The position numbers and the translations under genes were made by a program. DNA of 64,000 nt from Candidatus Babelota bacterium (GTDB lineage: Bacteria > Babelota > Babeliae > Babelales > JAUPTZ01). The stretch is taken from the NCBI GenBank assembly GCA_030917815.1, contig JAUPTZ010000010.1, forward strand, positions 78,605 through 142,604, in the 5' to 3' direction. Shown one piece after another: positions 16,095 through 52,861 of the stretch. The notes below the pieces were generated by a model. It was not told the origin of the DNA, did no database searches, and saw nothing but the letters and a program-made list of their open reading frames with translations. Position 1 is the first letter of the stretch. Each line of letters starts with the position of its first letter.

Positions 16095-16096
16095 CG

Positions 16097-18158: not shown

Positions 18159-18196
18159 TGCGCCAATAATTTTTACTTTTCTGAGGACACCATTAC

Positions 18197-25502: not shown

Positions 25503-25589
25503 TGGTGCCGAAGGTCGGACTCGAACCGACACAGTATCACTACCGCGGGATTTTGAGTCCCGTGCGTCTACCAATTTCGCCACTTCGGC
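25503..25589 (-). tRNA. tRNA-Leu (anticodon CAA), type II, CCA encoded
   Basis: Folded by hand. Acceptor GCCGAAG/CUUCGGC, 3-bp D stem, anticodon stem CGGGA/UCCCG with loop CUCAAAA. Long variable arm, T arm GUCGG-UUCGAGU-CCGAC, then ACCA. Confidence 0.9.
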
Positions 25590-25787
25590 ATGAAATAACA
25601 AGATGGGGCCGAATTTAACACAACTTTTTCTCAATGTCACGGTCATTTTGTACATCTCTATATGAAATGATGGTTGTTTTATAAAAAAGCCCCTTGACTA
25701 ACTCGTTTATTGTGTCACTATTTACAGTCATGATCATAGAATAGCGGTACCGGTGCCACCTCCACTTACCATACGAAAGCGACCCTC

Positions 25788-29679: not shown

Positions 29680-29709
29680 TGTGCACCCACGCATAAGCGT
29701 GTTGAAGCA

Positions 29710-32687: not shown

Positions 32688-34449
32688 GCACGCCCCCTGG
32701 TTTCATCAGTGCCAATCATATTACCTACCTGCAGCTGCCACATTTTTGCATAGTGACCCTTTTTCTTTTGTATGAGCTCTTCATGCGAGCCCTCCTCAAC
32801 AATTTTGCCATCAACAAAAACGAGCAAGCGATCCATCTGCTGCAACGTTGAAAGACGATGTGCTATGGCAATAGTGGTACGCCCTTCCATTAACGCATAC
32901 AGACTTTGTGAAATGGCATGCTCTGTAATAGAGTCAAGAGCCGAGGTCGCTTCATCAAGAATAAGAATTGGTGCTTTTTTAAGCAGCGCGCGAGCAATAG
33001 CAATCCGCTGCCGCTGACCACCACTAATATTAGTACCTCGCTCGCCAAGCACGGTGTCTTCTTTGTGCGGTAGTTCCTCAATAAATTGCTCCGCATGAGT
33101 TTGGGCGATCACACGAGTTAGATCTGCTTGCGACGCATGCGGATTTGCATAGAGCAAATTTTCTTTAACACTACGAGCAAAAAGCAAAGTTTCTTGCGGA
33201 ATAAGCGCAATATTGTGCCGTAAAGACTCTTGCGTTACCTGAGAAATATCTTGTCCATCAATAGAAATAGAGCCTCCACACACATCATAAAATCGCATGA
33301 TTAAATGAATAAACGTTGTCTTGCCACTCCCCGAGTCACCAACTAAGCCAATCTTCTCACCCGGCTTAATATGCACACTAAGCCCAGAAAATACCGTTGC
33401 GTGCCCCTTATACTTGAATTGTACTTTATCAAAAACAATGTCCCCTGATGACACCTTGAGCTCACATGCTGATGCAACATCCATAATCTGATGCGGCGTA
33501 CTCATAATCGAATAGGCCTCACGAGCAATACCATAGTCTTTGTACATTTTTGCGATGTGCGACGAAAGCCACCAGATGGTATTGAACATGTTAAAACAGG
33601 TAGCGAGAATAAAGGTGACATTTCCCGGCGTCATCGCATGGCCCTGCCACGCCGTAACCAACACATAGGATATGCCGGCAATAAGCCCAATACAGGCAAG
33701 CGAGAGCAATGCATTAGCACGGAATAAAAACCACTGTAATCGCTGGGTCGCCACAATCTCTTTCTTGTGATTACGCTCCATCAAGGTTAATTCGGTTTTT
33801 TGCTGCCCAAACATTTTAACCGTAAAAATGTTTTGCAAAACATTTACGGTCGCTCCAACAACGTTATTAAGCGCCGCCGCATATTTTTCAGCATATGAAA
33901 TGCCATGTATCGATAAATAAACGCTTAGCCCTATAGCACACAAAAACCAACTAGCCACCAAAGCAGCACAGGCAAGGTTAGTACGTGAAAGCATAATGAT
34001 AGAGAAGATAAACGACCATATAACCGGCGTTGTCCAGTGGGCCCACGCTTCATACAGTCGATCAAAGCTCTTAGTAAGCTGGTTAATTTTATCGGTCACA
34101 CTGCCAGAAAGATTTTTTGGTAATAATCATATGAATGGTCCATGGCATACCCAAGCGCCGCTTGACGCATATCACACTGAGCATAAGGGCTTATATAGCC
34201 ATGGGTCACAATATCGGTTATGCGGGCAACCGCATCTTTTGCACATAAAAGACCAATAAGGGTAAAAAAGAGAGTCCAGATATAGGAACTTGCCGTTGCC
34301 TCAGGACCGGTTTCGAGTGCGTCAATAATAAGCTTCAGTACGTACGGTAAAAATGCTTCCGCAAGGCCCCACACAATATTTAAGAGCTCAACACCCACCA
34401 AATACCAGCGATAGCGAAGCAAAAAGCGCAGAAAAAACCGTACTACCAT
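32684..34449 (-). pseudogene. ABC exporter (fused permease-ATPase, MsbA-like) split by a 1-nt frame change in a T6 run (A6 on the coding strand)
   Basis: The 117-aa ORF covers the TM N-terminus. The 471-aa ORF has Walker A 'GDSGSGKTT', signature 'ISGGQRQR' and Walker B 'ILILDEAT'. Reading '..YDYYQK' then 'NLSGSVTDKINQL' across 34113-34118 restores the canonical motif. Confidence 0.8.
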
Positions 34450-34630
34450 TCCATCTCCCCCGACTCTTTTAAAATCATGTGCCCGACTATACTAAAGGAC
34501 CAATTCGCAACACTAGTATCAAGGAAATATGCATTTTTTAGCTAGTAGATACCGATATATTGCCCCTGCTTTTCAAGATCTGCTACCGTATTTTATCTCA
34601 TTGATTTCCATGACAAAAAAAGGATTCTAT

Positions 34631-35152
34631 ATGTTTGCACTACTCCTACTTGGCACTCTCTGCAGTATCCTCGCAAATATGACTATGTACGCTGGGGGGA
34701 AAGCAAAAAATAGCGATGATGAAACCATCACTTTCATTTCACTCGGTACCGATCAAGGAATCTATAAAGCAATGATTACCGACTGCAACCAAGAAATACC
34801 GGTAACCAAACTCTCGTTTGCCGGGGAAACAACGCTCGATGGCGTAAAAAAAGAATTTGATAATTCAATCAGCAAAATCAGTTTAAGCGAGCTTGAAAGC
34901 ATTGTAATGCTCGATCCACTCTACATCAGTAAACGCTATCCACAGGCAGAGTTTTGCGCCGTAGCAATCACAACCACCTCCGGCATATCGGAAGAAATGC
35001 TCATGCCGCGAAACCTCCTAATTTGTGCACAAGATCGTGAATCAAATATCAGAAAATCGTGGCCGCTACGCAAGATAAGCGCTATCCACTTAAAACATGG
35101 GCTTGAAGACAACACATCACCAAATCGTGTGCACTATCGCATTCAATCATAA
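34631..35152 (+). CDS. exported hypothetical protein
   Basis: The ATG at 34631 has an AAGGA RBS. 'MFALLLLGTLCSILANMTMYAGG' is signal-like. The longer ORF start at 34529 has no support. Confidence 0.5.
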   Translation: MFALLLLGTLCSILANMTMYAGGKAKNSDDETITFISLGTDQGIYKAMITDCNQEIPVTKLSFAGETTLDGVKKEFDNSISKISLSELESIVMLDPLYISKRYPQAEFCAVAITTTSGISEEMLMPRNLLICAQDRESNIRKSWPLRKISAIHLKHGLEDNTSPNRVHYRIQS

Positions 35153-35917
35153 CGCGCGATCATCGGCTAACCCGGCACCTTTAATCATATTTTCCAACGA
35201 TTTTTGTGGCCGTTTCTTAGAAGATATACCACCGAATAGTGCTTCCTTATTAACCCAGGCAACACCTGACGCCAATGCAACAACCCCAACCGCAGCCGCC
35301 GTCTTCAAACCAACATTCCATGAAGATTGCGGCAACGAATCATGTACCAAATTTGAGACAGAGCGGACACGATGCATCAACGGATCAATGTGCGTAATAA
35401 TACCGACAACACACCCGGTCGCAATACCACACATCAAAGCGGTACTCAAACTGATATCAAGCGGCGTTACCAAATTCAACAACATAAGACCACCAAAAAC
35501 CGCAACGGCTGCGCCGGCAGATATTGCAATTTTCTTTACCGACTCTTCACTATGTATTCTCTTCTGATAGGAGAGCCGTGCATTAGTAAGTTGTCTAACC
35601 AACTCTTGCGCCAGGGCAAGACAACGACTCTCTTGCTCACCAAGCTTGCCTTCTTGCTTCTTCTTAGCAAACAATCGCTCAATATGCGACTCAAGCTTCG
35701 CAACGGTTTTCTCCACGTCGGTCAATGAAAGCTCGCTAAGATCAACCTCTTTATGATTCATCAACGCATTCAACCATTCACTTTGTTGGTCGGCAGCATG
35801 GAATGTCTCCACCAATTCTTTTTTGAACTGCACAAACGCATAGTCTTGAGCCGGAGCCTCACCATACAAAGGAAAAAAAGAAAGACTCAGCAACACTACA
35901 TAGACAATTTTTTGCAT
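35147..35917 (-). CDS. exported protein with C-terminal glycine-zipper-like TM segments (256 aa)
   Basis: Signal-like 'MQKIVYVVLLSLSFFPLYGEA'. C-terminal 'ISAGAAVAVFGGLMLL..MCGIATGCVVGII..AAAVGVVALASGVA'. Confidence 0.6.
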   Translation of the reverse strand: MQKIVYVVLLSLSFFPLYGEAPAQDYAFVQFKKELVETFHAADQQSEWLNALMNHKEVDLSELSLTDVEKTVAKLESHIERLFAKKKQEGKLGEQESRCLALAQELVRQLTNARLSYQKRIHSEESVKKIAISAGAAVAVFGGLMLLNLVTPLDISLSTALMCGIATGCVVGIITHIDPLMHRVRSVSNLVHDSLPQSSWNVGLKTAAAVGVVALASGVAWVNKEALFGGISSKKRPQKSLENMIKGAGLADDRAL

Positions 35918-36004
35918 ACCATTCTCCGGTAATACGTTAATCAGAGAATCGCAGCGTACGCATTCGTGTAATGACTGTCAATCGGATGGTTGCAGCACTA
36001 TAAA

Positions 36005-37261
36005 CTATAGATAGACTCGTCCTAGCAAATTCGCCACTTCGTCACGAGAGAAGAGACGATCTGGCCTTGCCGCTTTCAGTTCGATCTCAAGCTGTGCTTT
36101 TACCGCGCCCCGACGGGCTCTATCTGTACGAAGCTCCGAGACCATTTCACCATGCCTGAAAGCCTCGTTACGCGCTTCTGCCAGCTTGACTCGATCAGCT
36201 CCCGCTTCGCGATTAAGATCTCGCAATATCCGTTGCTCTTCACCAAGCCTCCTGGCAAGAGCATCGTTTTCCTCTTTCGATCTCTTAGCTTGCTCAATCG
36301 CGCTATCTCGCTCAAGCTCCAAAGCAGCAATGTGCCTTGCCGCATCACTCCTATCGTACTCACGAGCACCCAACACAACACGGTGTGCTTCCTGTAAAGC
36401 GGCAAGCTCGGCCTTGCAGGCCCGAAGCTCCTCGCCCATTCCACGCAAATGCTGAGTCAAGGCCCCAATATCATTCCTGCCTTGTTGTGTAAGTTGCTCA
36501 GATTGCACTTTCAATGCCGCAAGCTCGGCCGCTAGCACGTCTCGTTGCCGACCAAGAACCACCTCATTATCCAAGCCTTCTCTTGCAGTTCGCGTAAGAT
36601 CGGCCACCAATGCAGCTCGCTCAACCTGCAAAGCATTAATATCTCGTAACCGATTGCCCGACTCGGTCGCCGTTGCCGCAAGAGCCCTACGCGCTTCATC
36701 CAACTGCGTATTAGCAGCCCTCAACGTCTGGTCAAGCCTATTAATCTCCGCGTTTGCCCCATCACCGTCCAACTGCGCACGTTGCCTCAACGCAGCAAGC
36801 TCGGCCGCTAATGCATCTCGCTCAGTTTGCAACGCATCGTATTGCTGCTGCGCCAGGAGAGCGCCCCCCGCTTGAGCACGCTTCAATTGATCAATCTCTT
36901 CTTGTGCCGACACCATTTGCGCTTTAGCCGCAGCTAGTTCTACAGCAAAGTCGTCTAGCGCTTGCTTTGATAACGCCACAGATTCATCCTTATCTCTTTG
37001 CGTCTGATCGGCTTTCCTTTCTGCCTCTGTCAAGCGACCAGCTATCTCGCTATAACCGAATTGAGTATTTTGGTGCGTCAGCGAAAGAGCCTCAAGCTCT
37101 TGCCGAGTACTATCGTGTGCTCTTAGCGCAGCGGCCAATTCTTGATCTTTTTTCGCTAAGCTGGCAGTTAAAGGATTTTCAGCCTCTTTCTTTGAATCTT
37201 GGTCCCCCGCCCCTGACAATGCAAATCGCACCACTCCAGCGGTAATCACGGCACCGGTCAC
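36005..37261 (-). CDS. Ala/Leu/Glu/Arg-rich coiled-coil protein (418 aa)
   Basis: Long heptad-like sequence with a recurring 'AELAAL' motif. G+C-rich. The GTG start overlaps the upstream stop (GTGA), and the start is uncertain. Confidence 0.55.
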   Translation of the reverse strand: MTGAVITAGVVRFALSGAGDQDSKKEAENPLTASLAKKDQELAAALRAHDSTRQELEALSLTHQNTQFGYSEIAGRLTEAERKADQTQRDKDESVALSKQALDDFAVELAAAKAQMVSAQEEIDQLKRAQAGGALLAQQQYDALQTERDALAAELAALRQRAQLDGDGANAEINRLDQTLRAANTQLDEARRALAATATESGNRLRDINALQVERAALVADLTRTAREGLDNEVVLGRQRDVLAAELAALKVQSEQLTQQGRNDIGALTQHLRGMGEELRACKAELAALQEAHRVVLGAREYDRSDAARHIAALELERDSAIEQAKRSKEENDALARRLGEEQRILRDLNREAGADRVKLAEARNEAFRHGEMVSELRTDRARRGAVKAQLEIELKAARPDRLFSRDEVANLLGRVYL

Positions 37262-37632
37262 CCCGACCGCAAAACGCTTTGCCTTACGAAGATTTTCAAT
37301 CGCTTTTGAAGCACATCACTCGATCGCGCAACATTAGCGGCAGCACGAGAACACGCCGCCTCATCCTCCGGATACTGCGCAGTCCCTTCGGCCGCCTTAA
37401 GCATACGTGTTTGTTGTTTTTCAGCAGCAAGAAGAGCCTTTTTTGCCCTTGAATAGGACACAGCGGCCACTACCACAAGCGCCGCCGCGGTGGTCCCACC
37501 AATCACATCACCAGTACTTGGCGTAAAGGAGAGAAGACCCTCCGATGAGACAGCAAAAATCGAAACCAGAAACACATACAACCTAGATACTTTTTTCACC
37601 GTACCATCCCCATCACAGAAGCAAGAATTCAA
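37258..37632 (-). CDS. small membrane protein (about 113-124 aa)
   Basis: Two hydrophobic segments ('LYVFLVSIFAVSS', 'GGTTAAALVVVAAVSY'). Start is TTG at 37632 or GTG at 37599. It may be the frame-shifted N-terminus of the next ORF. Confidence 0.4.
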   Translation of the reverse strand: MNSCFCDGDGTVKKVSRLYVFLVSIFAVSSEGLLSFTPSTGDVIGGTTAAALVVVAAVSYSRAKKALLAAEKQQTRMLKAAEGTAQYPEDEAACSRAAANVARSSDVLQKRLKIFVRQSVLRSG

Positions 37633-37677
37633 TTTGTACTAGAGATAATGACACAAATATAGGCGGGGCGTCAATTT

Positions 37678-39327
37678 TCAAGCCGCAAAAGGCTTTTTCC
37701 CACCAATAAATTTATCTTTCAATCCCCCCAGCCAGGCAAACGAATTGGGCGAAAACTTCTTAATAAGTAATGCTCCGGCGATAATAACCCCAATTGCTAT
37801 CAGCAGCATGATTTTTTTATTAGGAGCGGCAATACGTGGCTTATGAGCAACCTCTTCCTGCGGATACATATCATCGGCCTCACCCTCCATTAGGCTGCTA
37901 TCTTCCATTGCATCGGCAACGTGGCGAGACTGCTCGGTCCCAAGACCAGGCACTAACGTGTCAAGATCGGCTTTTTCTATAGCAGAGGATTGTTTAAGAA
38001 GCTCCTGCTCAGACGCCGACATTTTTGCAATATCGGCCTGAAGGCGTTGTAAGGCCTCAACACCAGCCATGTCACGAACTACGATATCATAATCGTTCGT
38101 GAGGTAACTGATTTGATCGGCAATACCAATATATTTATCAATCGCCTCTTTATCATCCGGGGTTAATTGCCCATGCGATTTTTCAAACTTCTCCTGAACA
38201 ACCTCGGAGCAACGCATAGCAACACTCATCGGCTCCAGTGCGGCATCTCCCTCAAAAGAAATACCATCCTTTTTAAGCAACTCACCAGCCTGCTTAATCT
38301 GGACATCCAAAGCCTCTTTCAACTTCTTAACCAGCGGCTCACGCTTCAAATCTTGTTTCATTTCTTCCATAGAAAAACTCACCAAAAGAAGTTTGAATTT
38401 TGCTCCCAGCTCCTTATCGCTACCAACAATAACATGTGCCCATTGTGCTAAAGGTACCGCAAGCTGCTCGGCCGTTAAGCGAGATTTTTCTTGCACATAG
38501 GTATTGTATGTCTTAAGAAAATCACCAATTTTTTTGGCAATCGTCAGCGAAGGATCAATCGTGACGCCAATAAGACCTTGAAACACTTTAAACATTACTT
38601 CATTCTCAAGGCCATCAACGTTCGAGCCATATTTTTTCTGTATATGATCTTTAAATTTAGCAATAAAACGGGCTAGCCCACCATTCTGATCAAGTCGCTC
38701 TTTTTCGATATCTTGATGCACCGCAATTGCTTCCTGAAGCTGCTTATGCAAAGTAGCTTTTTGGGCAGCTTTTTGAGCAAAAAGTGCGCATGAGAAAAGA
38801 CGATGTTGTGAGACGGTTGGAATCCCGGGACATGAAAGACGATCGCTGTATTTTTGCGCGCTCTCAATAATTTTTTTGCCATACGTCGCAGCGTCTTCAA
38901 CCGATGCCGGCACTTCAATATCATCGGCCGATTCGGTCTCCGAGTCATCATCATAAGACTCGGTATCACCATCAAGCGAGACCGAAGCAAATCGTGCCTC
39001 ATCGGTGTGCATCGCGGGTGAAGCTACATATTTTCGACTGCTTTCAACTTGCACCATTGCAAGGCTTAGATAAGCTTTAAGGGTTTGCCCTACCGGAGTT
39101 GCCGTAAGCCCAAGCTTCTGTATATTCGCCCACTCAATTTTTAATAATTTTTCTTTATGCTCGGCCGAAAGCATCATATTGTTCATGATCGCATTCACTC
39201 GATTTTCCGCACGAACCTCATGAGATTCTCGTGCTTCCTGTCTTAATGGAGCTCTTGTGAAAGCACTGCCGGCGATAGCACAGAAACTGGCTACCAACAT
39301 AATAGAGTTCATTTTTTGCCACTTCAT
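37678..39327 (-). CDS. exported hypothetical protein with C-terminal TM anchor (549 aa)
   Basis: Signal-like 'MKWQKMNSIMLVASFCAIAGSAFT'. C-terminal 'IMLLIAIGVIIAGALLI'. Confidence 0.6.
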   Translation of the reverse strand: MKWQKMNSIMLVASFCAIAGSAFTRAPLRQEARESHEVRAENRVNAIMNNMMLSAEHKEKLLKIEWANIQKLGLTATPVGQTLKAYLSLAMVQVESSRKYVASPAMHTDEARFASVSLDGDTESYDDDSETESADDIEVPASVEDAATYGKKIIESAQKYSDRLSCPGIPTVSQHRLFSCALFAQKAAQKATLHKQLQEAIAVHQDIEKERLDQNGGLARFIAKFKDHIQKKYGSNVDGLENEVMFKVFQGLIGVTIDPSLTIAKKIGDFLKTYNTYVQEKSRLTAEQLAVPLAQWAHVIVGSDKELGAKFKLLLVSFSMEEMKQDLKREPLVKKLKEALDVQIKQAGELLKKDGISFEGDAALEPMSVAMRCSEVVQEKFEKSHGQLTPDDKEAIDKYIGIADQISYLTNDYDIVVRDMAGVEALQRLQADIAKMSASEQELLKQSSAIEKADLDTLVPGLGTEQSRHVADAMEDSSLMEGEADDMYPQEEVAHKPRIAAPNKKIMLLIAIGVIIAGALLIKKFSPNSFAWLGGLKDKFIGGKKPFAA

Positions 39328-39337
39328 ACATCACCTC

Positions 39338-40798
39338 TTACAACGTTATTCCTATACCACACCACAAATGTAGCGAGTCCAGTACGGTCGGGGTGTGAGC
39401 AAACTCATAGGCAAAACCCAAACGCACGGTACATGTTGCTATATCATGGATAAATGAGCTGTTATAATCAACAAACAAGGTATGCGATGCAACTTGTGGC
39501 ATGGCGCCACTATCAACATCAAATTCAATATCTTGCACGATCGCAGGGCTCGTTGAAATTGCTACATCGAGCGCACTAAAACTATCTGAAATCTTTGGCC
39601 CAGAGAGCCAAAGCGGTAAATCACCAGAATCAAGACCTTGTGGCGATGGCACCGCAAATGTACGCGTTAAAGGCTCGGCGAATGTCACCTGCTCAGCAAC
39701 CCGCCACCAATACATATATCCAACGTTTATGCGGTGCCGCGAAATGCTCATCTCAAGCGCATTAATACTTTGTCCGGTTGCTCCTGGCGTTACTAACGAC
39801 TCACGAAGAAAGAAGTTTCCACCGTTAGCAGCTTTCATCACCACGTTTGCAATATCGGGCCGCAACGCGGTATCCATATAGACCAAGTAACGTGAAAACG
39901 GCTGCCCTTTTAAATCAAATAAACGGGGTTGATGACACGGCAAATGGTACCGATAGCCAAGATGCCCAATGTAAGAAAATAAACAGTTCTTATTCAACTG
40001 ATAAACCGGGGCTACTGTTTTGATACTGCCACCGATCCCAACCGACCCTTGTGAACCAATCAGCGGTTCAAACAAATATTGCCCAGTTGGCCGACCACCA
40101 ACCGGCACTACAATTTCCAGAGCGATTTGCTGCATACTATTTAATGGTCCATCAATATCAAGGCCTAGCTGACATACCATATCATCTAATCCGGTAATAG
40201 ATTGTGGTTCTCCACTCCATTTACCGGCGCGCCAGTTATCCCAGTCAAGCGCCCTTTCAACCGAGCCAAACGCCGATGTCGGGCTCACCTGTGTCGCAGA
40301 ATTTTTAAATTCAGCAACATTCAACGTATGCGTAACATTAACGATAGGCAGCACCACTGCAGCCCACAAACCATCCAAAATATCATCCAAAATATATTGC
40401 GCCCGCAAACAAACACCAATCGCCAACCGTTTTGGTGCAACACTTAGCGTTGATTTATAAAGCGTATCGGTAGCGCTCTGAATATGGAACCAATCAGGAT
40501 TAATATCCCCTTCTTCACCCTCATCAATGATCACCTTGGTACGATCATTACCCAGAAAAAATGGCGCGCTTTTTGTATGATTAAATGACTCTTGATACAA
40601 GAGACTGTGCCCAAAAAGCATCACGCGCTTATGTTCGCGATCATGAGTTGCCAGCAGAGAAAAACCATCGGTGTAGAGCGCCGAAGAACTCATGGAGCGA
40701 GGTATAAATATTGTGCGGGGCTGCTCGCTACGCGCAAGGCACAGGAAGCTACTGCTGACAAACAAAAGCACTAAACATCGGCGCTGAAAGCTCATCAT
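39338..40798 (-). CDS. putative outer-membrane beta-barrel protein (486 aa)
   Basis: Signal-like 'MMSFQRRCLVLLFVSSSFLCLARSE'. Alternating hydrophobic/polar stretches rich in Gly, Tyr and Trp, and an aromatic-rich C-terminus '..GFAYEFA..LHLWCGIGITL'. The fold call is by eye only. Confidence 0.45.
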   Translation of the reverse strand: MMSFQRRCLVLLFVSSSFLCLARSEQPRTIFIPRSMSSSALYTDGFSLLATHDREHKRVMLFGHSLLYQESFNHTKSAPFFLGNDRTKVIIDEGEEGDINPDWFHIQSATDTLYKSTLSVAPKRLAIGVCLRAQYILDDILDGLWAAVVLPIVNVTHTLNVAEFKNSATQVSPTSAFGSVERALDWDNWRAGKWSGEPQSITGLDDMVCQLGLDIDGPLNSMQQIALEIVVPVGGRPTGQYLFEPLIGSQGSVGIGGSIKTVAPVYQLNKNCLFSYIGHLGYRYHLPCHQPRLFDLKGQPFSRYLVYMDTALRPDIANVVMKAANGGNFFLRESLVTPGATGQSINALEMSISRHRINVGYMYWWRVAEQVTFAEPLTRTFAVPSPQGLDSGDLPLWLSGPKISDSFSALDVAISTSPAIVQDIEFDVDSGAMPQVASHTLFVDYNSSFIHDIATCTVRLGFAYEFAHTPTVLDSLHLWCGIGITL

Positions 40799-43473
40799 GC
40801 CATCACCGCGACGCCGGAGCCTGTTATGTGCTCGACCGGGATATTAGGTGTCACCATTCTCGCATTACCGGTCACCATTTTGGCCGGGATAGGAGCTTCT
40901 TTGGTGGCTGATGAGCCCAAATCATATGCAGCATCCATTGCCTTTGCACGACCCTCTCGCGTGAGCGATTGTTCAGCCTTTATAGCCAATAAATAGGTCT
41001 CATCTTCGGCCGGCAGTATAATTTTTGAAGGATCGGTTATTTTTCCATTGAGGGCATCTTCAAGATCTTTTTGCGCCATCTTAATCTTTAATAACAACTG
41101 TCGGTCCACTTCGCTCACTTCGACGATAAGATCTCGTAATGCTTTCTCAATCTTAGAGCCGGCAACTGCTCGCAGCACTTTAACCCATGCTTTATCAAAC
41201 AAAGTACGAATCGCTTTCTGCATACTGCTAATCTTACTATTGGCATACTCGGTCATCCAGTGAGTGTAGACCGTTAATGCCTTAAAACTAAGCAGTAGCT
41301 TGCCGTAACTGCGATCGCTTTCCTGATAAGCAACAAGCATTGATTTTTGAATTTGGCGTGTAAGATCGCCGGTGGTACCCAATGCATTAATGGTTTCATC
41401 AATTGCACCATCCAAATCATTCTTAATGGTAAGCTTATCGGTAATCTGCTGCGAATGCCGTGCAAATACTTTCCCAAAATTAGCAAGCTGTTCGCCAACG
41501 CTACCAAGCGGTGTTGATGATTTAGGTGCCGCCATCTCGGTTGCTTTAATATCACTTCGTAAAACACCATCTTCATCAAAAAGATCAACCGACTCGGTTG
41601 CCACTGTAGCGCCTTGTGCTTTTTTTACGGCCTCTTCTTGGCGCTGATTAACTTCAATCGCCAATAACCGACAATAGATGCAGAGCCACAATAATTTATA
41701 GAGACTTTGATAAACACCTTCAGAACATATTACCTTTGTAGTTGCGCTCTTGGACCCACCGGCTAAAGAAAACGATGCATTAAAAGTAAACGCTTTATGC
41801 GGTGCCCAAACCGCAATCTGATCCATAATAATCTTATAAGAAGCCGCAACTTCAGATCGTGTGCCACTCTTAATACCGAGCAATCCCAGATATCCTCTCA
41901 CAACACCAATCTCTTTAGTAAGCGCCCCAACAACTGTTTTTTTATTTCGTTGCGGCAAGATACCCCACGAAACACCATTTATATAAGAGCAATAGCCTGC
42001 TATTTTTTTATACAGCACAATACCATCAGACACACGGAAACCACTCACCGCTTTCTGTATATTTGGCGCAAGCGAAGCATAATCAAAGAAATCAATATCA
42101 CCAGACAAGATACCCAAGCGGGCCTCAAATGAGCGCCGGCGTTCACGTTCAAACGGCGTTGAGGAGACCGATGGCATAGCACCCTTTGTATCAAATTCAC
42201 CGCCAGGAACTCCCAATGGAATATGCTTACACAACATTTGCCCACGATATTCGCGAGACATAATCGACTGCATATCGGTAAGATCAAGTATTTCGGCTTT
42301 CCCCCGGAAAAATCGCTCTGCAAGTCGATACACAATACCAACTAATATGCTGTACACATGAGAATCATACAGCCAAACCGACAAGGCCTGACTGCCACTA
42401 GGATACTCAAAAACCTTATCAGGAATTCGTACCGACTCAAGACGAGCCTGGAAAAGAAGAAGTGCACTTCCTATTTTGGTTAATTTTTTCTGCACAAATT
42501 CTAGCGCAAGCTGATGAGCTTTGTAACGGGCAGCAACCAACTCTTGGAGCCAGTCGGTTTCATTAAAACTACTTCCCGTCATCTTATCGGTCGGTATCGC
42601 CATCCCCAAATATTCGGCTTTTTCGAGTTCGAAAAGCTGCGCTTCGGTTAATTTATGCTCGCGCGCATACAAAGCAATACGTAGCTCACGAGCTACCTGA
42701 TACTGTATGTCATATTCATTACGATACGCTATTACCATCTCTGCAAAAAATCGATGCAGCGCGTTAAGGTCAGAGAGATCCACCCCATTAACATTTCGTG
42801 CATTAAGCTCATCAAAGGAACGATACCCTAAAACGCTCAATAGCAATACCCCATACGGTGATTTTATGTCGGTTATCTTAAGCATTATTTTAACAAAATC
42901 TTCTCTGGTAACGCTTAAATCAAACTGCATAACCCATCGAACAAAAGATTCACTTGGATCTTTATTTATTTTCTTATCACGCACCGCTTTTTGTACCGCA
43001 CTCAATAGCAAAGTGGTAAATACCTCTTCTTTGCCCTTCGTTTTTTTCAAGGCGGTCCATGCCGCGAGAGATGCTCGACGCACCTGCCTAAAAGCCTCCA
43101 TATGATCGGCATCCATAAACACATAAGCAAGCTCGGCCGCAAGAAGCGAATCTTTTACTTTCCACTTATCTAATGAGCCGCTGCAAAGTGTTTTTAACGG
43201 ATCTTCCCATTCGGCCAATACCGGCATCGATGGCTCACTCTCACTAACCTCTACCGCTTTTTCAGTAGATAACTCTTCAGCCGATTCTTGAGCCTCCTCG
43301 GTCGTATCAAGTTCAACAGGAGAAGGCTTTTTAGACGAACTCAAAATTAAATCAGCAAGACTTGAAGAGCTTGGTGAGTCACTCTCTAAACCATACATGG
43401 CAAGGGCATTCGAAGAAAGCAATGATGTACTACTACAGGCAAAAATTGCCAGAGCCAGAAGCTGATATCTCAT
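40795..43473 (-). CDS. exported hypothetical protein (892 aa)
   Basis: Signal-like 'MRYQLLALAIFACSSTSLLSSNALA', followed by an acidic Ser/Glu-rich linker and a large helical body. There is a 4-nt overlap with the downstream ORF. Confidence 0.6.
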   Translation of the reverse strand: MRYQLLALAIFACSSTSLLSSNALAMYGLESDSPSSSSLADLILSSSKKPSPVELDTTEEAQESAEELSTEKAVEVSESEPSMPVLAEWEDPLKTLCSGSLDKWKVKDSLLAAELAYVFMDADHMEAFRQVRRASLAAWTALKKTKGKEEVFTTLLLSAVQKAVRDKKINKDPSESFVRWVMQFDLSVTREDFVKIMLKITDIKSPYGVLLLSVLGYRSFDELNARNVNGVDLSDLNALHRFFAEMVIAYRNEYDIQYQVARELRIALYAREHKLTEAQLFELEKAEYLGMAIPTDKMTGSSFNETDWLQELVAARYKAHQLALEFVQKKLTKIGSALLLFQARLESVRIPDKVFEYPSGSQALSVWLYDSHVYSILVGIVYRLAERFFRGKAEILDLTDMQSIMSREYRGQMLCKHIPLGVPGGEFDTKGAMPSVSSTPFERERRRSFEARLGILSGDIDFFDYASLAPNIQKAVSGFRVSDGIVLYKKIAGYCSYINGVSWGILPQRNKKTVVGALTKEIGVVRGYLGLLGIKSGTRSEVAASYKIIMDQIAVWAPHKAFTFNASFSLAGGSKSATTKVICSEGVYQSLYKLLWLCIYCRLLAIEVNQRQEEAVKKAQGATVATESVDLFDEDGVLRSDIKATEMAAPKSSTPLGSVGEQLANFGKVFARHSQQITDKLTIKNDLDGAIDETINALGTTGDLTRQIQKSMLVAYQESDRSYGKLLLSFKALTVYTHWMTEYANSKISSMQKAIRTLFDKAWVKVLRAVAGSKIEKALRDLIVEVSEVDRQLLLKIKMAQKDLEDALNGKITDPSKIILPAEDETYLLAIKAEQSLTREGRAKAMDAAYDLGSSATKEAPIPAKMVTGNARMVTPNIPVEHITGSGVAVMA

Positions 43474-43491
43474 ATCAATGACACCTTTTGT

Positions 43492-45090
43492 TTATGCCCA
43501 AGACTCGATCATTCCTGGGGCATACTTGTTAACCAGCACACGAACAATTGGCAGGGTTGCGGCAATACCAGGAAATATACGACTGACTGCACGTAGTCGC
43601 ATCTCAAGCTTCGCACGCAACGGAGTAATTTCTTTGATACGAGAGAGATGCTTGCTCAGGCCCACGGCAACCGATCCAAAAATAGAATTACCCTGCATGT
43701 ATTCTTGCGTACGTAGCATAGTTGATTCACGAAGTAGCGCATTAATACCCACGCGAGTTACACTAGAAGTTAAGTTCTTTTCATCAATAGCGCGCAGCCG
43801 AGCAGTAATTTCATCCAGTGATTCACGAGCCTCATTGAGTGAATACTCTAAATCGGTACGGCCTTGGTCTCTGCTATATGATTCGTGACGCTGATTGGTA
43901 ACAGCAACATAAGCTGCGATCAGATCATTAATATTGCCTTTAACCTTACGCGCTTCGCTCTCATCGCCCAAAGCTTCTTGCCAGTCGATTTTACGTTGCG
44001 CAATCAATTCGGTTTTATCAACAACCTTACCATCTTCTTTCCAAATCGATTTCATTTGCCGATGACATTTTTCAATTCGCCTTTTATACCGATCAGCATC
44101 ATCGAGCGCTTTGATCACCGCATCATCTTTACGCTGCACCATCTCTGCTATGCGTTTATCAAGAATAGCACTACCGCTCAAGCTTCCACTGCTGTTGTCA
44201 CCTTCAAGTACGATAGACTTTTCACCGGCTGCAGTCCCTTGAGCTGCAGTGATACGCTCTTGAAAAATGTTAATTTCTTCCTCTTTCTGCTTTTTAAAAT
44301 CGTTTGCAGAAATTAACCACAGGCCATCAAGCATGCGCCCAAAATCCTTATAGAGATCAATCACTAAATCATAGTAATTTGCCAGGTTATCTCGAGCTTC
44401 ACGAAGATTTTTTTCATTCTCGGCCACAGGGGCCTTAGCTCTATTCTTTACAAACTTATCTAATGAAATTTTGACGTTATCCTTACTCTTACTACCTTCG
44501 CCATTTGCGTCTGGTTCCATTGCTTGCAAGATGGTAATCGTATTTTTTGCCTCATCATAACCATACTGCAACACTTCAATAGGACTCCGCATACGCTCAG
44601 GCATCGTTCGTATTGCCAAAAGAACTTGCCGCTCGCCATCCAATGCAGCACGAACGCGGGCCCAATACGCAAGTTTTTTAAGCGCATCAGCGTCCCCATT
44701 TTTCATAGCACTCAATACCTGCTCCGCCTCTTCAAGCTTCTTTTCAAGAGCGGCTAGATTTCGTTGAATTTCCTCTATTTTTTCTTTCTTAAAGGCTTGC
44801 ATGACCGCTGCAAGATCATCCACCGTTCTAATCTCGCCAGCAGGCACAGCCGGCGCATCTGGTGCTTTAAACAGAGCAGCATCTTTTATCGGATCATGCT
44901 TGTTTGTCTCCATAATACTTGCCGTTACCTCAGCAACATTTCCGCCAGCAGGAGTCTTCGCCGTTGTCGTTGCACTTGAAATCATCGGTTTAACACCCAA
45001 AACAATGGCACCGCTTCCCGAAGGAGTTGCCACCGCATATCCACTCAATAAGCAACTACTTATGCAGGCAATAACTACTCTTTTTTTCAT
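43492..45090 (-). CDS. exported hypothetical coiled-coil protein (532 aa)
   Basis: Signal-like 'MKKRVVIACISSCLLSGYAVA'. Confidence 0.6.
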   Translation of the reverse strand: MKKRVVIACISSCLLSGYAVATPSGSGAIVLGVKPMISSATTTAKTPAGGNVAEVTASIMETNKHDPIKDAALFKAPDAPAVPAGEIRTVDDLAAVMQAFKKEKIEEIQRNLAALEKKLEEAEQVLSAMKNGDADALKKLAYWARVRAALDGERQVLLAIRTMPERMRSPIEVLQYGYDEAKNTITILQAMEPDANGEGSKSKDNVKISLDKFVKNRAKAPVAENEKNLREARDNLANYYDLVIDLYKDFGRMLDGLWLISANDFKKQKEEEINIFQERITAAQGTAAGEKSIVLEGDNSSGSLSGSAILDKRIAEMVQRKDDAVIKALDDADRYKRRIEKCHRQMKSIWKEDGKVVDKTELIAQRKIDWQEALGDESEARKVKGNINDLIAAYVAVTNQRHESYSRDQGRTDLEYSLNEARESLDEITARLRAIDEKNLTSSVTRVGINALLRESTMLRTQEYMQGNSIFGSVAVGLSKHLSRIKEITPLRAKLEMRLRAVSRIFPGIAATLPIVRVLVNKYAPGMIESWA

Positions 45091-45100
45091 ATGCTTTTCC

Positions 45101-46879
45101 TTATGAGGCCTTAACCATCTCAGCTAAATCGCTTGGAATGGTACATCCAGCAAATTTTCCACCTTTTTTCTTGAGGTTATCCAACGCTTCGCGATAAAGA
45201 TTTCCTACACGAGCAGCCGCTTTTTTGTGGCTTTCAAGCGTTCCTTTAATCAAAGTTTTTATGGCATTAGAACATTCTTTGCTATCTTTAAAATACGGAC
45301 CCGCAACCGCATAAAAATCAACGGTCGGCCGCTCAAGAAGTAGACCTAGAGGTAACTTTAAGAAACTCGCCTCAGGATTGTCTAAATAGGCCTGTGCAAA
45401 TTGCTGGCGACGCTCTTTTTCTCTTACCGTCGCCGTTATTTCAGCATTCATCTCGTTGTTACCACGCATTACTTCAAGATATTCCCATAATGCTTGAAAA
45501 AATATTACCGCCACAATTTTAGCGGCATCGGTTGCATCGGTCTCATTGGTACAGTAATAGACGTAGTGATCAGCATGTACCACTTTCGGCAAATCGCCTG
45601 CATACCCAAGTGGCCTACCGGGACCAACCAACGATCTAAAGCTGTCGGTTAACAAGTGAGCATCAACACCAACCGGATTGGTTGAATCTAAATCGTAACG
45701 ACCAAACTCTTTCTGTGCATGCCGCAATACAATATCTTCAATAATGCCCCTCACCACCTCAAATGTTACGCGGCGCTCTGTTTGCTCCGCCTCAGGCAAA
45801 CGGTGCATTTGCATAGCATATAGTTGCGAAATCATTGCTACGCGAACAATGAATGGCTTATCTACCATATCTTGCGTTTCTATTTTGTCCCAATTAATTT
45901 GTTTTTGATTCAAGAAATCGGACAAGGTTTTTGCCTCTTCTGCCGAACGACACTCAAGACCGCTTATTGCAACACCAAGCCCACGCTGAACGCTACCATC
46001 AGGACCAAATTCAATACCATCACCGGTCATAACAAGCTTCCACATACGATCAAGCTTGCGGTGTAAAAACATTTCATCATGCGAAGGATTCAGCGCAGCA
46101 GGAATACACTTACGAGACACATCTCTCAGCAATTGACCAAGCGATGGCATGCAATCTTCAATCGCCGCAGAGATTCCACCAGCAGCGCGACTGTCACGAC
46201 GCCATGCCTTGAACAAACGAAGGGTCAGCACACCAATATCGGCAACATAAGAAAAGCCACGAACGAATCGATCACTGCTTTCTTTTTTATCCAAAAACTT
46301 TTTGCCATAATGCTCACCAGCATGTTTCAGCAAAAGAAAAAGCTTGATTGCATACACCAAGCCCGGAGTTACTTTAAAACTAAAAAGTCGCTCCAGCGGA
46401 TGCCTCTTTTTTCCAGCCTCATCATCTTCACCAAAGAAATCGACCGCACCTTCTCCGTCACCAGAACCGAGCATGTCATCATTAAAAAAGCCGACTAACC
46501 GTTCCTGTGCAATTTTCATAAACATCGTACGCGCTTGCGCTGCAGCCGGAGAAAGCGACCCGTTATCATTCCAGTCAAGATAGACTCGTTGCGGCGCTGG
46601 TAGCGCTAAAAATGGCGAACCAGAACCGGCGCCGCCAAGATCAAACATCACGCCAAACCCTGAGAAGAACGGTAGAGAAAGGCGACCGGTGGTATAAAAA
46701 TCAAGCTCTTTAAGACTCGTCATAAAGCCACTGGTAGACATTTTAATAGGCGATGCTTGGCCACCAGAATTAAGAAATGCTTCAAGTAGTTGCGCCATAG
46801 GCTCAGTGGCCGGTGTAAGCGAGGTAGTAATAGCAAAAAAGCCTAAATAGAAAAACAATCGTAAACGTGTCATAAGCAT
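45101..46879 (-). CDS. exported hypothetical protein (592 aa)
   Basis: Signal-like 'MLMTRLRLFFYLGFFAITTSLTPA'. Confidence 0.6.
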   Translation of the reverse strand: MLMTRLRLFFYLGFFAITTSLTPATEPMAQLLEAFLNSGGQASPIKMSTSGFMTSLKELDFYTTGRLSLPFFSGFGVMFDLGGAGSGSPFLALPAPQRVYLDWNDNGSLSPAAAQARTMFMKIAQERLVGFFNDDMLGSGDGEGAVDFFGEDDEAGKKRHPLERLFSFKVTPGLVYAIKLFLLLKHAGEHYGKKFLDKKESSDRFVRGFSYVADIGVLTLRLFKAWRRDSRAAGGISAAIEDCMPSLGQLLRDVSRKCIPAALNPSHDEMFLHRKLDRMWKLVMTGDGIEFGPDGSVQRGLGVAISGLECRSAEEAKTLSDFLNQKQINWDKIETQDMVDKPFIVRVAMISQLYAMQMHRLPEAEQTERRVTFEVVRGIIEDIVLRHAQKEFGRYDLDSTNPVGVDAHLLTDSFRSLVGPGRPLGYAGDLPKVVHADHYVYYCTNETDATDAAKIVAVIFFQALWEYLEVMRGNNEMNAEITATVREKERRQQFAQAYLDNPEASFLKLPLGLLLERPTVDFYAVAGPYFKDSKECSNAIKTLIKGTLESHKKAAARVGNLYREALDNLKKKGGKFAGCTIPSDLAEMVKAS

Positions 46880-46967
46880 TCCCGTGTTAATGCGATCAAA
46901 GGGATCTTCTAAACGGGGTCATGCTAGCAACAGTGAAAAAGTCGATGCAACAGTTCTGCAATATGAA

Positions 46968-49289
46968 TTATTCTACCATTGGACTTTGCGTCCCAGAGAG
47001 AGCGTCGTCAGCCGTCGTCTGCACCTGAATAACAAATTGATCTGGTGGAAACTCGGTTGCCATTACCGGCTGTATCACTTCAATTTCCACTTCGACCTGC
47101 TGGGGCTGCAGGACAATCGGTTCAAATTCTTTAGTTTGTCGCTCTGGAATGGCAATATCAGTCGAAGCTTCACTTAATAATTGAAGCGCCATCTCAAGAG
47201 AACGCAACACTTCAGTATGATCAGGTTCTTGCTGACAATCACGAACCAAACACAACAAATCAACCAGCTGCTGGTGCACATGCCGTACATTATGAGCCGA
47301 GTTATGCAACTGATTATAGTCGGCAAGTAACTTGTCACCAAACGTAGCCATTTGTGAAAGAAGATGTGCATGTGTAGCGGCTCGACGCGTATCATCGGCA
47401 TGCAACCTACGGGCCTTTTCAAGCGTTGCTTGAAGCTTAGCCATCTCGCCATAAGCGGCACGACGCTCATTCAATTCTTTTTGATGAAGCTGCAACATCT
47501 CCATAAGCATCGCAACCTTACGTTGAGATTTTTCGGTCAATTTAATCACCTGTTCTTTAAACGAATCAACGGTAACGTTCAAGCCTTCGTTTTGGCCGCT
47601 CAAATCGGCCACCGCTTTTTGCAACGTTTCGATTTGCGAGCGATAGGTACCACACTCCTGCTGCGCCTGCTCAAGCTGGTTAGCATACACCGACACTTGC
47701 TCAAGAACCTGAAGATTAACCTCTTTAGCGCTCTTAACTTCAAGTTCTAATTCGATACTTTCTTTTTGCTTCTCTTCAAACAATTCCCCCAACACACGAC
47801 ACTTGTCCTGCAAGGTATTCAGCTGATCAGTCAACACAGTTACCACTTCGGTGCTAGTACGACGAAGCTGTGCAATCTCTTGATTTACCTGCGCCAAGGA
47901 AATCTCAAGCTCTGCCTGCTTGCGTGCTTTTGACTCAACAGCAGCACGTAGTTCTTTCTCGGTTACCGCTTTATCGGTCAACTGCTCTGCTAACGTTATT
48001 AAGCGCGACTGTGAGCGAGTAGTTAATATTTTCATGTGCTCAGAAATTTGCGCCAGCTGAATCTCAAGCTCAGCTTTATCACGCTCCTTATTTTCAAGAA
48101 CTTCAATCAATGATCCGCGCTCTTGTGCATGCGCCTCGTCTTTTGCTCCAAGCGCTTGTGTATAGGCTTGCTCCTGAGCACCAATTTGGATAAGCATCTC
48201 ATCACGCTCTTTTTTCATCTTTATTAATTGACCTTCCATCGAGACAATTTGCTCAGACTTTTCGAGTACCGATTCCTGGGCAGCACCTTCTTGATTCAAC
48301 TTTGTTTCAAGTTCTGCGATGCGCGATTCAAGATTAACCACCTTCTCTTTTTCGGTAACAATTGTGATATCACGCTTACCCGGTGCGACATCAATGCTAA
48401 TCTTATGTACCAGATTCTCAATTACATCAGCTGCAAGAAAAATCGAAGGATTTGGACTATTTTGCATATGATTGTTGATCTCATAAAGAGCCATCAATCG
48501 AAGCTGTGATTGTACTTTTGCAGGGAAATGGTACTCATTAACCATATCAAGAATAAGATCATCTGCTTGGCGCTGTGCATCAACAACAGCAGCAACCGCA
48601 TTTCGTTTTGTTACAACCGCATTATATGCTTCATCAAAGAAGAACTCTGCTTCGGCAACTTTTTGAGTCAACCAAGCCTGCTGTTCATTGAATAGGGCAA
48701 TGAAGTTCTGCCGCTCAACACGGATAACCTCACCCTCCATAACCACGGTACGAATAAATCCGGCATCTTTTTCAAAATCTTTTGCAATTTCCCTACGCCA
48801 TTCTTTCGTAATAGGTGTACGGCCAGCTTTTTTATCTTCTTTAGCCTCTTCTTCTAACGCTACCTTAAGCGCAGCCGCCTTACGCTCTGCATCGGTAATA
48901 ATCAATCGAGCTTTCTCTTCGGCTTGCTTCGACGCTTCGGCCGCCTCTTCCCGAGCCTTCTGCTCAAGAAGCACCTGCTGTTTAGCATCACGGGCCAACA
49001 TCTCTTCACGGCGACGCTCAAAGCGCGATTGATGCCGTCTCACTTTTGCTTCAAGCTCTTCTTCGGTGCGCTTAGCGAGACGTTTTTCGTGCTCCGCTTT
49101 TCGCTTTGCCTCTTCCACAAGCATATCAATATCGCGATATTGGCCGGTTAAACGATCAAGGTCGGGTGCCGCCTTTTTCTCCACAACCGGCTGCACAACT
49201 TTAACCGCTGCCTTACGTGGTGCACGACGTGCACAGAGTTCATAAGAAGGAAGACACAAAACAGTACATAAAAGGAGTAAAAGAATCAT
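46968..49289 (-). CDS. exported long coiled-coil protein (773 aa)
   Basis: Signal-like 'MILLLLLCTVLCLPSYELCA', then a K/E/A/R-rich region and about 450 aa of heptad-like sequence. Confidence 0.6.
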   Translation of the reverse strand: MILLLLLCTVLCLPSYELCARRAPRKAAVKVVQPVVEKKAAPDLDRLTGQYRDIDMLVEEAKRKAEHEKRLAKRTEEELEAKVRRHQSRFERRREEMLARDAKQQVLLEQKAREEAAEASKQAEEKARLIITDAERKAAALKVALEEEAKEDKKAGRTPITKEWRREIAKDFEKDAGFIRTVVMEGEVIRVERQNFIALFNEQQAWLTQKVAEAEFFFDEAYNAVVTKRNAVAAVVDAQRQADDLILDMVNEYHFPAKVQSQLRLMALYEINNHMQNSPNPSIFLAADVIENLVHKISIDVAPGKRDITIVTEKEKVVNLESRIAELETKLNQEGAAQESVLEKSEQIVSMEGQLIKMKKERDEMLIQIGAQEQAYTQALGAKDEAHAQERGSLIEVLENKERDKAELEIQLAQISEHMKILTTRSQSRLITLAEQLTDKAVTEKELRAAVESKARKQAELEISLAQVNQEIAQLRRTSTEVVTVLTDQLNTLQDKCRVLGELFEEKQKESIELELEVKSAKEVNLQVLEQVSVYANQLEQAQQECGTYRSQIETLQKAVADLSGQNEGLNVTVDSFKEQVIKLTEKSQRKVAMLMEMLQLHQKELNERRAAYGEMAKLQATLEKARRLHADDTRRAATHAHLLSQMATFGDKLLADYNQLHNSAHNVRHVHQQLVDLLCLVRDCQQEPDHTEVLRSLEMALQLLSEASTDIAIPERQTKEFEPIVLQPQQVEVEIEVIQPVMATEFPPDQFVIQVQTTADDALSGTQSPMVE

Positions 49290-52849: not shown

Positions 52850-52861
52850 AAGAGTTTGGGC

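Follow-up and report, generated by a model that had tools for sequence, protein, structure and literature searches.

A conserved, clade-specific gene module around a predicted outer-membrane beta-barrel in a Babeliales bacterium (Candidatus Dependentiae/Babelota)

An outer-membrane barrel that shares an operon with its partner proteins is a known arrangement, and we compared known barrel systems with a cluster of nine genes in a 64,000-nucleotide (nt) stretch, the window, of contig JAUPTZ010000010.1 from a Candidatus Babelota bacterium. In the Fap operon of Pseudomonas, Sec-exported proteins are encoded together with a dedicated barrel, FapF, and coiled-coil elements have been implicated at the periplasmic side (PMC5557850). 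The COG4313 channels, reported as widespread in gamma-proteobacteria, have 270-320 mature residues and take up hydrophobic molecules (PMC4493636). The type Va autotransporters EstA and EspP possess 12-stranded, polypeptide-translocating barrels, and their passenger and barrel form one polypeptide. In Thermotoga, the coiled-coil rod Omp-alpha is encoded next to the porin Omp-beta. The Dependentiae (Babelota) live inside protists as widespread parasites or symbionts; hardly any experimental cell biology exists for them, and they rely heavily on their hosts (PMC6561590). No description of a Dependentiae envelope system, of the present cluster, or of its barrel family was found in the literature searched.

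The nine open reading frames (ORFs), numbered g1 to g9 in the order of transcription, all lie on the minus strand, and the coordinates and gaps listed for them in an initial annotation (88, 10, 18, -4, 10, 45, -4 and 87 nt from g1 to g9) were reproduced exactly. The region is best explained as an envelope gene module of a Babeliales bacterium, inherited vertically and specific to its clade. The existence of a real, conserved module around an outer-membrane barrel is, in our judgment, very probable, and its proteins probably form one physical or functional assembly; secretion or display is the function that we favour, tentatively and with considerable doubt. The proposed anatomy comprises a tight core of g2-g3-g4-g5-g6, with g1 on the 5' side, and g9 and a convergent gene, g10, on the 3' side. 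With six to eight genes that stay together across relatives, the cluster makes a good candidate, though an unproven one, for a cell-envelope machine specific to its lineage.

The module is visible foremost in the gene order of related loci. The neighbourhoods of g5 homologues, taken from genomes, metagenomes and exact look-ups, were scanned by BLAST and per-family profiles; the related loci compared with the window carry L-numbers, with L005 and L018 treated together. The order g1-g2-g3-g4-g5-g6 was kept in every related locus with enough flank. It was seen in L005/L018, L008, L009, and L017, likewise in L012 and L026, whose contigs end within g1, and also in L025, where g2 and g3 are fused. 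The order was kept even in the divergent L006 (g5 36% and FeoB 58% identical), in which g2 matches in part and g3 weakly, and the partial contigs L010, L011, L016, and L019 agree as far as their sequence reaches. Every g5-subfamily barrel with flanking sequence had g4 upstream and g6 downstream, whereas g1-g4 and g6 were missing around all 14 distant barrel paralogues (L013, L014, L021, L022, L023). The gaps between g2 and g6 were mostly of 36 nt or less across loci, except for 73 nt before g5 in L006; the 4-nt overlap between g4 and g5 recurs in the gene calls of L005 and L025, and g9 follows g6 after 55-99 nt where nothing is inserted. Additionally, g1-g6 and g9 have protein-level homologues in other assemblies (26-72% identity) and are real genes.

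The second line of evidence is the fusion of g2 (45101-46879, 592 residues) with g3 (43492-45090, 532 residues). In a protein of 1103 residues in L017, the g2 profile aligns with residues 10-583 and the g3 profile with residues 621-1103, and no separate signal peptide precedes the g3 part. The same arrangement was found in a 1052-residue protein of L025, and in L010 and L011 the g3 frame is open to the contig start through a Gly/Ala linker, which implies the fusion there too. The fusion is therefore no assembly accident. Its occurrence in frame in at least two lineages indicates that g2 and g3 would work together, and it is the strongest sign of functional coupling in the cluster.

The rates of divergence are uneven within the conserved order. 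Identities to L009, L008, and L005 were 72, 56 and 55% for g5, 67, 51 and 42% for g2, 58, 53 and 44% for g1, 50, 41 and 31% for g3, 42, 32 and 27% for g6, and 38, 28 and 26% for g4. The barrel gene is thus the most conserved, and g4 and g6, which flank it, change fastest, as would be expected of exposed or host-facing parts. In all-against-all hhalign comparisons, the g1-g6 families were unrelated to each other (best probability 12.7%, through signal peptides only); therefore, the cluster is not a paralogue array. No further copy of any cluster family was found within the window. A consensus scan of the cluster gave promoters and terminators no commoner than in shuffled sequence, so it is spacing and synteny that argue for co-transcription; RNA folding of the g1-g2 and g8-g9 spacers was unremarkable (z of about -1).

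These comparisons uphold the view of the initial annotation that the genes are not a random collection, given the kept order of g1-g6, the constant flanking of the g5 subfamily by g4 and g6, and the g2-g3 fusion. The co-occurrence in relatives that it had proposed as a test was seen for g1-g6, only in part for g9, and not for g7 and g8. Its nine-gene unit has to be redrawn, as g7 and g8 are lineage-specific, g9 is missing in L009 and L012, and the conserved opposite-strand g10 had been overlooked. The module is confined to one sub-clade, with about 20 g5-subfamily, 13 g1, and 9 g2 sequence clusters.

The central gene, g5 (39338-40798, 486 residues), encodes a signal peptide, a conserved N-terminal segment of about 35 residues, and a beta-barrel with long conserved loops; the mature protein has about 460 residues. 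An AlphaFold2 model from 19 sequences was all-beta (predicted local distance difference test, pLDDT, 74.9; predicted template modelling score, pTM, 0.74), and DSSP gave 19 strand elements, hairpin extensions included. Foldseek against PDB placed FapF first (5o65/5o67/5o68; E 1e-10, target-normalised TM-score 0.67-0.76, sequence identity 9-11%) and the COG4313 channel 4rl8 second (E 7.5e-9, target-normalised TM-score 0.61-0.68). The autotransporter barrels EstA (3kvn) and EspP (3slj) followed at E 4e-7 to 2e-5, the 14-stranded FadL, CymA, and OmpG at about 1e-5, and TodX-type channels were matched too. All matches were outer-membrane barrels, with 69 PDB chains below E 1e-3; among the 50 matches listed, the Omp85 family was represented by a single entry, a Bacteroides BAM chain at rank 30 (E 2.4e-5). 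The modelling supports g5 as a predicted outer-membrane beta-barrel, in agreement with the barrel-like protein of the initial annotation. A structure search on AlphaFold models, which the annotation had proposed, thus gave a known barrel fold for g5, and for g2 nothing below E=1.

The likeness of g5 to FapF, a plugged 12-stranded barrel and its best structural match, includes the setting, that is, a barrel in an operon with several Sec-exported partners. However, there was no detectable sequence similarity between the two; g5 is about 180 residues longer, with large conserved loops, and the N-terminal trimeric coiled-coil domain and linker of FapF are missing, with no coiled-coil signal in the 35 residues or so between the signal peptide of g5 and its first strand. 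FapA-E, the C39-type protease FapD, and the amyloid-repeat proteins FapB and FapC have no counterpart among the nine proteins in Pfam and NCBIfam, and, unlike in Fap, the partners are large and alpha-helical, with a membrane anchor on two or three of them. The autotransporters, present in the Foldseek list of g5, differ in that neither a passenger, nor a linker helix, nor the autotransporter Pfam domain was found here. As for the COG4313 family (PF13557, Phenol_MetA_deg; Pput2725 4rl8, SphA), its proteins are 12-stranded barrels with an occluding N-terminus, and g5 carries its conserved segment before the first strand (P33 invariant, R34 and S37 nearly so; model pLDDT 55-74). The mature g5 is about 140-190 residues longer than COG4313 proteins, its family was seen here in Dependentiae, and we know of no COG4313 gene that lies within an operon of large helical envelope proteins.

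An exhaustive profile search showed that the g5 family comprises 2,240 clusters at 50% identity (E<=1e-3), 624 of them at E<=1e-30. From 63 sampled distant members, three matched PF13557 (best E 4e-6), which is the only sequence-level link to COG4313, and none matched NCBIfam. The tie of g5 to COG4313 and FapF is therefore remote, clear in the fold and marginal in the sequence. The label of orphan, applied initially to all nine proteins, holds for g1, g2, g3, g4, and g6 and fails for the barrel. We regard g5 as a very divergent branch of a known superfamily and its partners as new families, in an arrangement whose logic, a barrel with operon partners, is already known. The barrel nonetheless defines a very large outer-membrane family that is unnamed in curated databases. 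Distant members of about 490-690 residues occur in tandem arrays, six in L013 (3426-15043), four in L023 (3248-10888), and two in L021 (6913-11278). The divergently transcribed neighbour of the L013 array is a BacA/UppP gene (Pfam E 2e-19), and the array neighbours in L021 and L023 have similar N-termini.

Within the g5 subfamily, the non-strand segments were conserved as much as the strands (0.62 vs 0.58 identity), and loops 232-253 and 294-330 reached 0.81 and 0.76 identity. Such loop conservation is unexpected for an exposed general porin and suggests gating or partner contacts. We consider as an alternative, a rather unlikely one, that g5 is a COG4313-like channel importing hydrophobic or amphipathic host molecules (lipids, sphingoid bases), with the helical proteins, g6, and g9 relaying them to the inner membrane. 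This would agree with the rank of 4rl8 and the FadL and TodX-type matches, with the PF13557 matches of three of the 63 family members, with the hydrophobic substrates of COG4313 channels, and with the strong host dependence of Dependentiae (PMC6561590). The great expansion of the barrel family into 2,240 clusters and tandem arrays is also what would be expected for nutrient channels. However, the mature g5 exceeds the length of COG4313 proteins, and fast evolution of g4 and g6 fits a conserved substrate relay poorly. The known COG4313 and FadL systems, as far as we are aware, need no five large co-encoded helical proteins, and no lipid-binding or MCE/Lol/Mla-type domain was found in g1-g9 (Pfam, NCBIfam).

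The partners of the barrel gave no match at curated threshold in Pfam or NCBIfam, and nothing meaningful in PADLOC or PHROGs, for any of g1-g9. The statement of the initial annotation that the set contains no enzyme, ATPase, or known secretion-system motif was borne out, as no such domain was found in these libraries or in per-member scans of the g4 and g6 families. Two-partner (type Vb) secretion is not indicated, with POTRA, Bac_surface_Ag, ShlB, and two-partner-secretion-domain matches not found in the nine proteins, and neither was any signature component of type I to type IX secretion systems or defence systems (secretin, ATPase, membrane fusion protein, TolC, VirB, Gld/Spr). Sub-threshold matches to SMC, HIP1_clath_bdg, Nup49, OXA-62, and a PA1041-anchor model (15.9 bits vs a cutoff of 250) were rejected as composition artefacts of the coiled-coil or chance type. 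Scattered single matches to Talin rod, COG5_C, Cullin, and DUF948 in the g4 and g6 families were inconsistent. No known relative was found for the g1, g2, g3, g4, or g6 family, and these five further families, without sequence or structural relatives, are useful targets for structure determination.

Hydrophobicity scanning, the basis for the N-terminal and transmembrane segments of g1-g9, confirmed hydrophobic N-terminal segments on seven proteins, of which that of g1 is not a classical signal peptide. The signal peptides of g2-g6 and g9 are classical, with basic N-termini and neutral or acidic residues past the hydrophobic core, and low-complexity linkers follow them in g3, g4, and g6. Past its signal peptide, g2 is a protein of mixed alpha/beta type, rich in invariant motifs (DLGGAGxGSP, RDSRAAGGIS, DGSVQRGLG, QKQINWDKIETQ; 10 sequences, 40-97% identity). 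The AlphaFold2 model of g2 from these 10 sequences was poor (pLDDT 51.7), so that no fold could be assigned with Foldseek, and its profile had no match among PDB sequences. The g3 protein continues with an Ala/Thr/Pro-rich linker and a partly coiled-coil helical body (29-51% identity), and its C-terminal 45 residues are strongly conserved (KHLSxFKEMxPVRAEFEMRLRAV…PG…LP…APGxIxxWA); a SNAP-25 match in the PDB profile search (E 0.17) was at chance level, and no SNARE-mimic claim is made.

The genes on the two sides of the barrel are g4 (40795-43473, 892 residues), whose stop overlaps the g5 start by 4 nt, and g6 (37678-39327, 549 residues). The g4 protein, which evolves fastest among the core members (18-38% identity), has a Ser/Glu-rich disordered stretch (residues 26-90 approximately) between its signal peptide and a large helical body, and no relative was found in PDB or Pfam. 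The g6 protein comprises a signal peptide, an acidic linker, a helical periplasmic body, a C-terminal transmembrane helix (502-527), and a short basic tail. The family is 18-42% identical and keeps the C-terminal helix, and g6 is predicted to have a type-I inner-membrane anchor topology. A ScoC match of g6 in the PDB profile search (E 0.024) was at chance level.

The first gene, g1 (46968-49289, 773 residues), encodes an N-terminal membrane anchor, a Lys/Glu-rich coiled coil, a conserved helical domain at about residues 155-310 (ITKEWRRE...FFFDE...VDAQRQADD...LRLMALYEINNH), and a long coiled coil. Orthologues with 34-58% identity stand first in the cluster in L005, L006, L008, L009, L017, L025, and L026. 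The coiled coil is indicated by 372 residues in Pro/Gly-free runs, a 3.5-residue periodicity, and weak SMC matches. In all 12 complete N-termini (the window and 11 orthologues, P0181-P0192), no Lys or Arg precedes the hydrophobic segment, and an acidic residue, x-x-Ala-Arg-Arg with the ARR invariant, and more basic residues follow it; no consistent lipobox was found in the orthologues. Under the positive-inside rule, this reversed charge pattern predicts an N-out/C-in orientation. We therefore think it probable, on the charge pattern, that the long coiled coil of g1 is cytoplasmic, as in EzrA-type anchors. The claim that the cluster encodes only exported proteins is, accordingly, probably wrong, considering this pattern and the lack of a signal peptide in g8.

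The orientation of g1 also bears on whether the cluster could be a scaffold or tether, in which the barrel would anchor the outer membrane and inner-membrane-anchored g1, g3, g4, and g6 would bridge the periplasm, replacing Lpp, Pal, OmpA, or OmpM. The charge pattern of g1 points to the cytoplasm and not to the periplasm. The cluster does resemble known tethers in joining a barrel, long coiled coils, and membrane anchors (here on g6, g9, and g1 at the inner membrane), with the Thermotoga pair of Omp-alpha and Omp-beta as a parallel. Furthermore, in ten Dependentiae genomes no homologue of the four known tether systems was found (bioRxiv 10.1101/2021.05.31.446380). The whole phylum would require a tether, whereas the module is restricted to one sub-clade, and no peptidoglycan-binding domain (OmpA_C, SLH, LysM, SPOR, or other) or lipobox was found in the cluster. 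We consider the tether improbable.

For the favoured reading, secretion or display by an envelope module, the following course is proposed. Sec would export g2, g3, g4, g5, g6, and g9, as their classical signal peptides suggest, and g5 would be inserted in the outer membrane as a small barrel of the FapF/COG4313 type, the fold being that of the model. Its long conserved loops and N-terminal segment may gate the lumen or bind partners. The C-terminal helix of g6, the Gly-rich helices of g9, and the N-terminal anchor of g1 would provide the hold in the inner membrane, and g2-g3, one polypeptide in some lineages, together with g4 would be soluble partners docking on the barrel. The barrel would then work for the proteins of its own operon, as FapF does for the Fap proteins and an autotransporter barrel for its passenger. 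In the least supported step, g4, which evolves fast, and possibly g2-g3 as well, may be threaded or displayed by the barrel at the cell surface, where they would make contact with the protist host. Display or secretion is favoured because the closest structural relatives move polypeptides, because the Fap operon sets a precedent, and because the flanking genes evolve fast. Of the envelope-spanning or surface-displayed assembly in the initial annotation, the module and the barrel stand; the function as an assembly we infer. A barrel together with inner-membrane-anchored helical proteins would be a concrete place to study envelope building or host contact.

Several points weigh against this reading. 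We know of no precedent for moving alpha-helical proteins of 500-900 residues through a FapF-like barrel. No ATPase or energy source was found inside the cluster, g5 lacks the periplasmic coiled-coil domain of FapF, and FapA-E-like, C39 peptidase, POTRA, and passenger-type domains were not found in g1-g9 (Pfam, NCBIfam). The COG4313 relatives of the barrel are uptake channels, and the partnerless tandem arrays of the wider family fit a generic channel role. The Foldseek likeness among small barrels may be partly generic; g5 itself had no Pfam match at E<=1, PF13557 included, and profile searches of PDB sequences with g5 and with wide barrel-family profiles returned nothing, 4rl8 included. The structure models cover g5 and g2 only, and that of g2 is unreliable. 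The flanks are collinear too, with feoB divergent upstream, and the ABC exporter, chloramphenicol-phosphotransferase-like (CPT), DUF4143, and T2SSF genes downstream; therefore, part of the synteny is general and, among close relatives, is weak evidence of coupling. In addition, the g1-g2 gap is 88-118 nt in five loci, two small ORFs stand between g1 and g2 in L026, and a 1057-residue protein of L024 (10001-13174, P0193) has only the central domain of g1 (profile positions 99-282, E 2e-22). Therefore, g1 may be a separate unit. The L024 gene is divergent to feoB, as is g1 in the window, and the barrel cluster is absent there; g1 and feoB may have been paired before the cluster arose.

The last of these points lead to the possibility that there is no single system, and that a porin-like protein stands among unrelated exported ORFans or effectors whose order is kept by regional collinearity in a young clade. 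Besides the collinear housekeeping flanks, the separability of g1, and the uninformative promoter and terminator scan, this is in line with the abundance of exported proteins in these bacteria. In a cultured isolate of the phylum, about 44% of the coding sequences were predicted to carry signal peptides, which were enriched in ORFans (Deeg 2019, PMC6561590), and with this background the seven of nine signal-peptide-like starts are only mildly enriched (binomial P of about 0.04). However, the order persists to 36% g5 and 58% FeoB identity in L006, g2 and g3 are fused in two clades, the start-stop overlap of g4 and g5 recurs, and the g5 subfamily has g4 and g6 without exception, which the other barrel paralogues do not. 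We hold the absence of a system to be improbable, and we retain the conserved envelope module as the preferred reading. The module is a testable lead, limited by an unproven function, its restriction to one sub-clade, and the commonness of exported ORFans in these genomes. If the barrel were a channel with bystander neighbours, the gain would be only a better annotation of a poorly known phylum.

The 3' side of the module is less constant than the core. The small protein of g7 (37258-37632, 124 residues from a TTG start) has two hydrophobic segments, consistent with the two-transmembrane protein noted initially. Four Logan assemblies of the same organism call it as 113 residues from a GTG at 37599 (MKKVSRLYVF...), with a more canonical basic N-terminus; this start is more likely than the TTG, and it makes the g6-g7 gap 78 nt instead of 45. 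Inserted between g6 and g9, g8 (36005-37261, 418 residues, GTG start, 4-nt overlap with the g7 stop) is an Ala/Arg/Glu/Leu-rich coiled-coil protein without signal peptide. Its best Pfam match, HIP1_clath_bdg, is of the coiled-coil type and below threshold (26.1 bits vs a cutoff of 28.8). Homologues of g7 and g8 were found in no related locus and only in this organism, where independent Logan assemblies call both genes identically, and we propose them as recent lineage-specific additions. The GC content of g8, 0.53, comes from codon positions 1 and 2 and is explained by amino-acid composition, and its third-position value (0.465) is within the host range, so a foreign origin of g7 and g8 was rejected.

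The protein of g9 (35147-35917, 256 residues) has a signal peptide, a helical domain, and Gly/Ala-rich hydrophobic segments at 129-178 and 202-222, which correspond to the glycine-zipper segments of the initial annotation. It is probably a small inner-membrane protein and a conserved accessory member, as judged from these segments and from orthologues of about 50% identity after g6 in L005/L018, L008, L017, and L025; the closest relatives, L009 and L012, lack the gene at this position. Convergent with g9, whose end it overlaps by 6 nt, g10 (34529-35152, plus strand, a 207-residue ORF called as 173 residues from 34631) encodes a small exported protein. Genes 37-59% identical were found at the same position in L005, L006, L008, L017, and L025, and g10 had no Pfam match. 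In L009, where g9 is also missing, the gene at the g10 position is unrelated. In L006, the gene after g6 (13658-18367, plus strand), in the slot occupied by g7 and g8 in the window, encodes a protein of 1569 residues without signal peptide, packed with IQ calmodulin-binding motifs of the eukaryote type (Pfam PF00612, summed E 1e-97). The 3' end of the cluster thus looks like a variable position, possibly carrying effectors.

A variable slot of this kind invites a reading as effector delivery across both membranes, in which g1, g6, g9, g2-g4, and g5 would export signal-peptide-less cargo from the 3' position, perhaps powered by the neighbouring ABC exporter. The probable N-out/C-in orientation of g1 and the lack of signal peptides in g8 and in the IQ-motif protein of L006 would agree with it, and the window, L006, and L025 all have an ABC exporter just downstream. 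In L005 and L008 no exporter occupies this position, however, and neither an ATPase inside the cluster nor homology to any secretion system was found. A small barrel of the 12-strand type is an unlikely conduit for folded cargo, and g8 matches a eukaryotic domain only below threshold, in a way typical of coiled coils. We rate this delivery route very unlikely. Broader, and unlikely as well, if less so, is the idea that g1-g6, g9, and g10 form an undescribed envelope-spanning machine of one Babeliales clade that replaces the missing tethers or delivers eukaryote-like cargo. Its parts would be, with similar doubt, a cytoplasm-facing coiled coil (g1), inner-membrane anchors (g6 and g9), periplasmic proteins (g2-g3 and g4), and the outer-membrane barrel (g5). 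Equally doubtful is that its cargo would be lineage-variable proteins, g8 here and the IQ-motif protein in L006, passed to the protist host.

The names of g5 homologues and the titles of their genomes were those of Candidatus Dependentiae or Candidatus Babeliales, and exact cluster proteins were found only in Logan assemblies of runs SRR24011136 to SRR24011150. By its gene content, the window is ordinary chromosome, with genes for pheT, uvrB, an amino-acid permease, a ComM-like ATPase, feoB, and a T2SSF/PilC protein. A mobile or phage origin of the cluster was rejected in view of the housekeeping flanks and the absence of PHROG and defence matches. The GC content is even, at about 0.46, with a single rise at 36-38 kb caused by the Ala/Arg/Glu-rich g8.

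Among the neighbouring genes, an MsbA-type ABC exporter (ABC_membrane and ABC_tran; 32684-34449, minus strand) is split in the window into ORFs of 117 and 471 residues by a frameshift near 34100. Over 7,278 bp, the only difference in a Logan contig of this organism (L027) is a run of A7 in place of the A6 of the window, and there the exporter is intact as an ORF of 588 residues. The split is a homopolymer assembly error or phase variation, and no true pseudogene. A CPT gene was noted at 32064-32687 (minus strand), and L005 and L008 have the CPT-DUF4143 pair conserved downstream of the cluster too. Further out, a T2SSF/PilC-type platform protein (28462-29694, minus strand), outside the cluster, and two tandem ABC_sub_bind paralogues (25788-27901, plus strand) are collinear with L008 and have no apparent link to the cluster, and the same lack of a link applies to a HerA-like DUF87 ATPase (53996-55624, minus strand). 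The ORFs at 25023-25655 (minus strand) and 25041-25556 (plus strand) are probably not genes; they overlap a tRNA (25506-25589, minus strand), which is the sole Rfam match in the window. Finally, a gene resembling APH(6)/hydroxyurea kinases (52856-53662, plus strand) was present, like the CPT gene, in this host-dependent bacterium.

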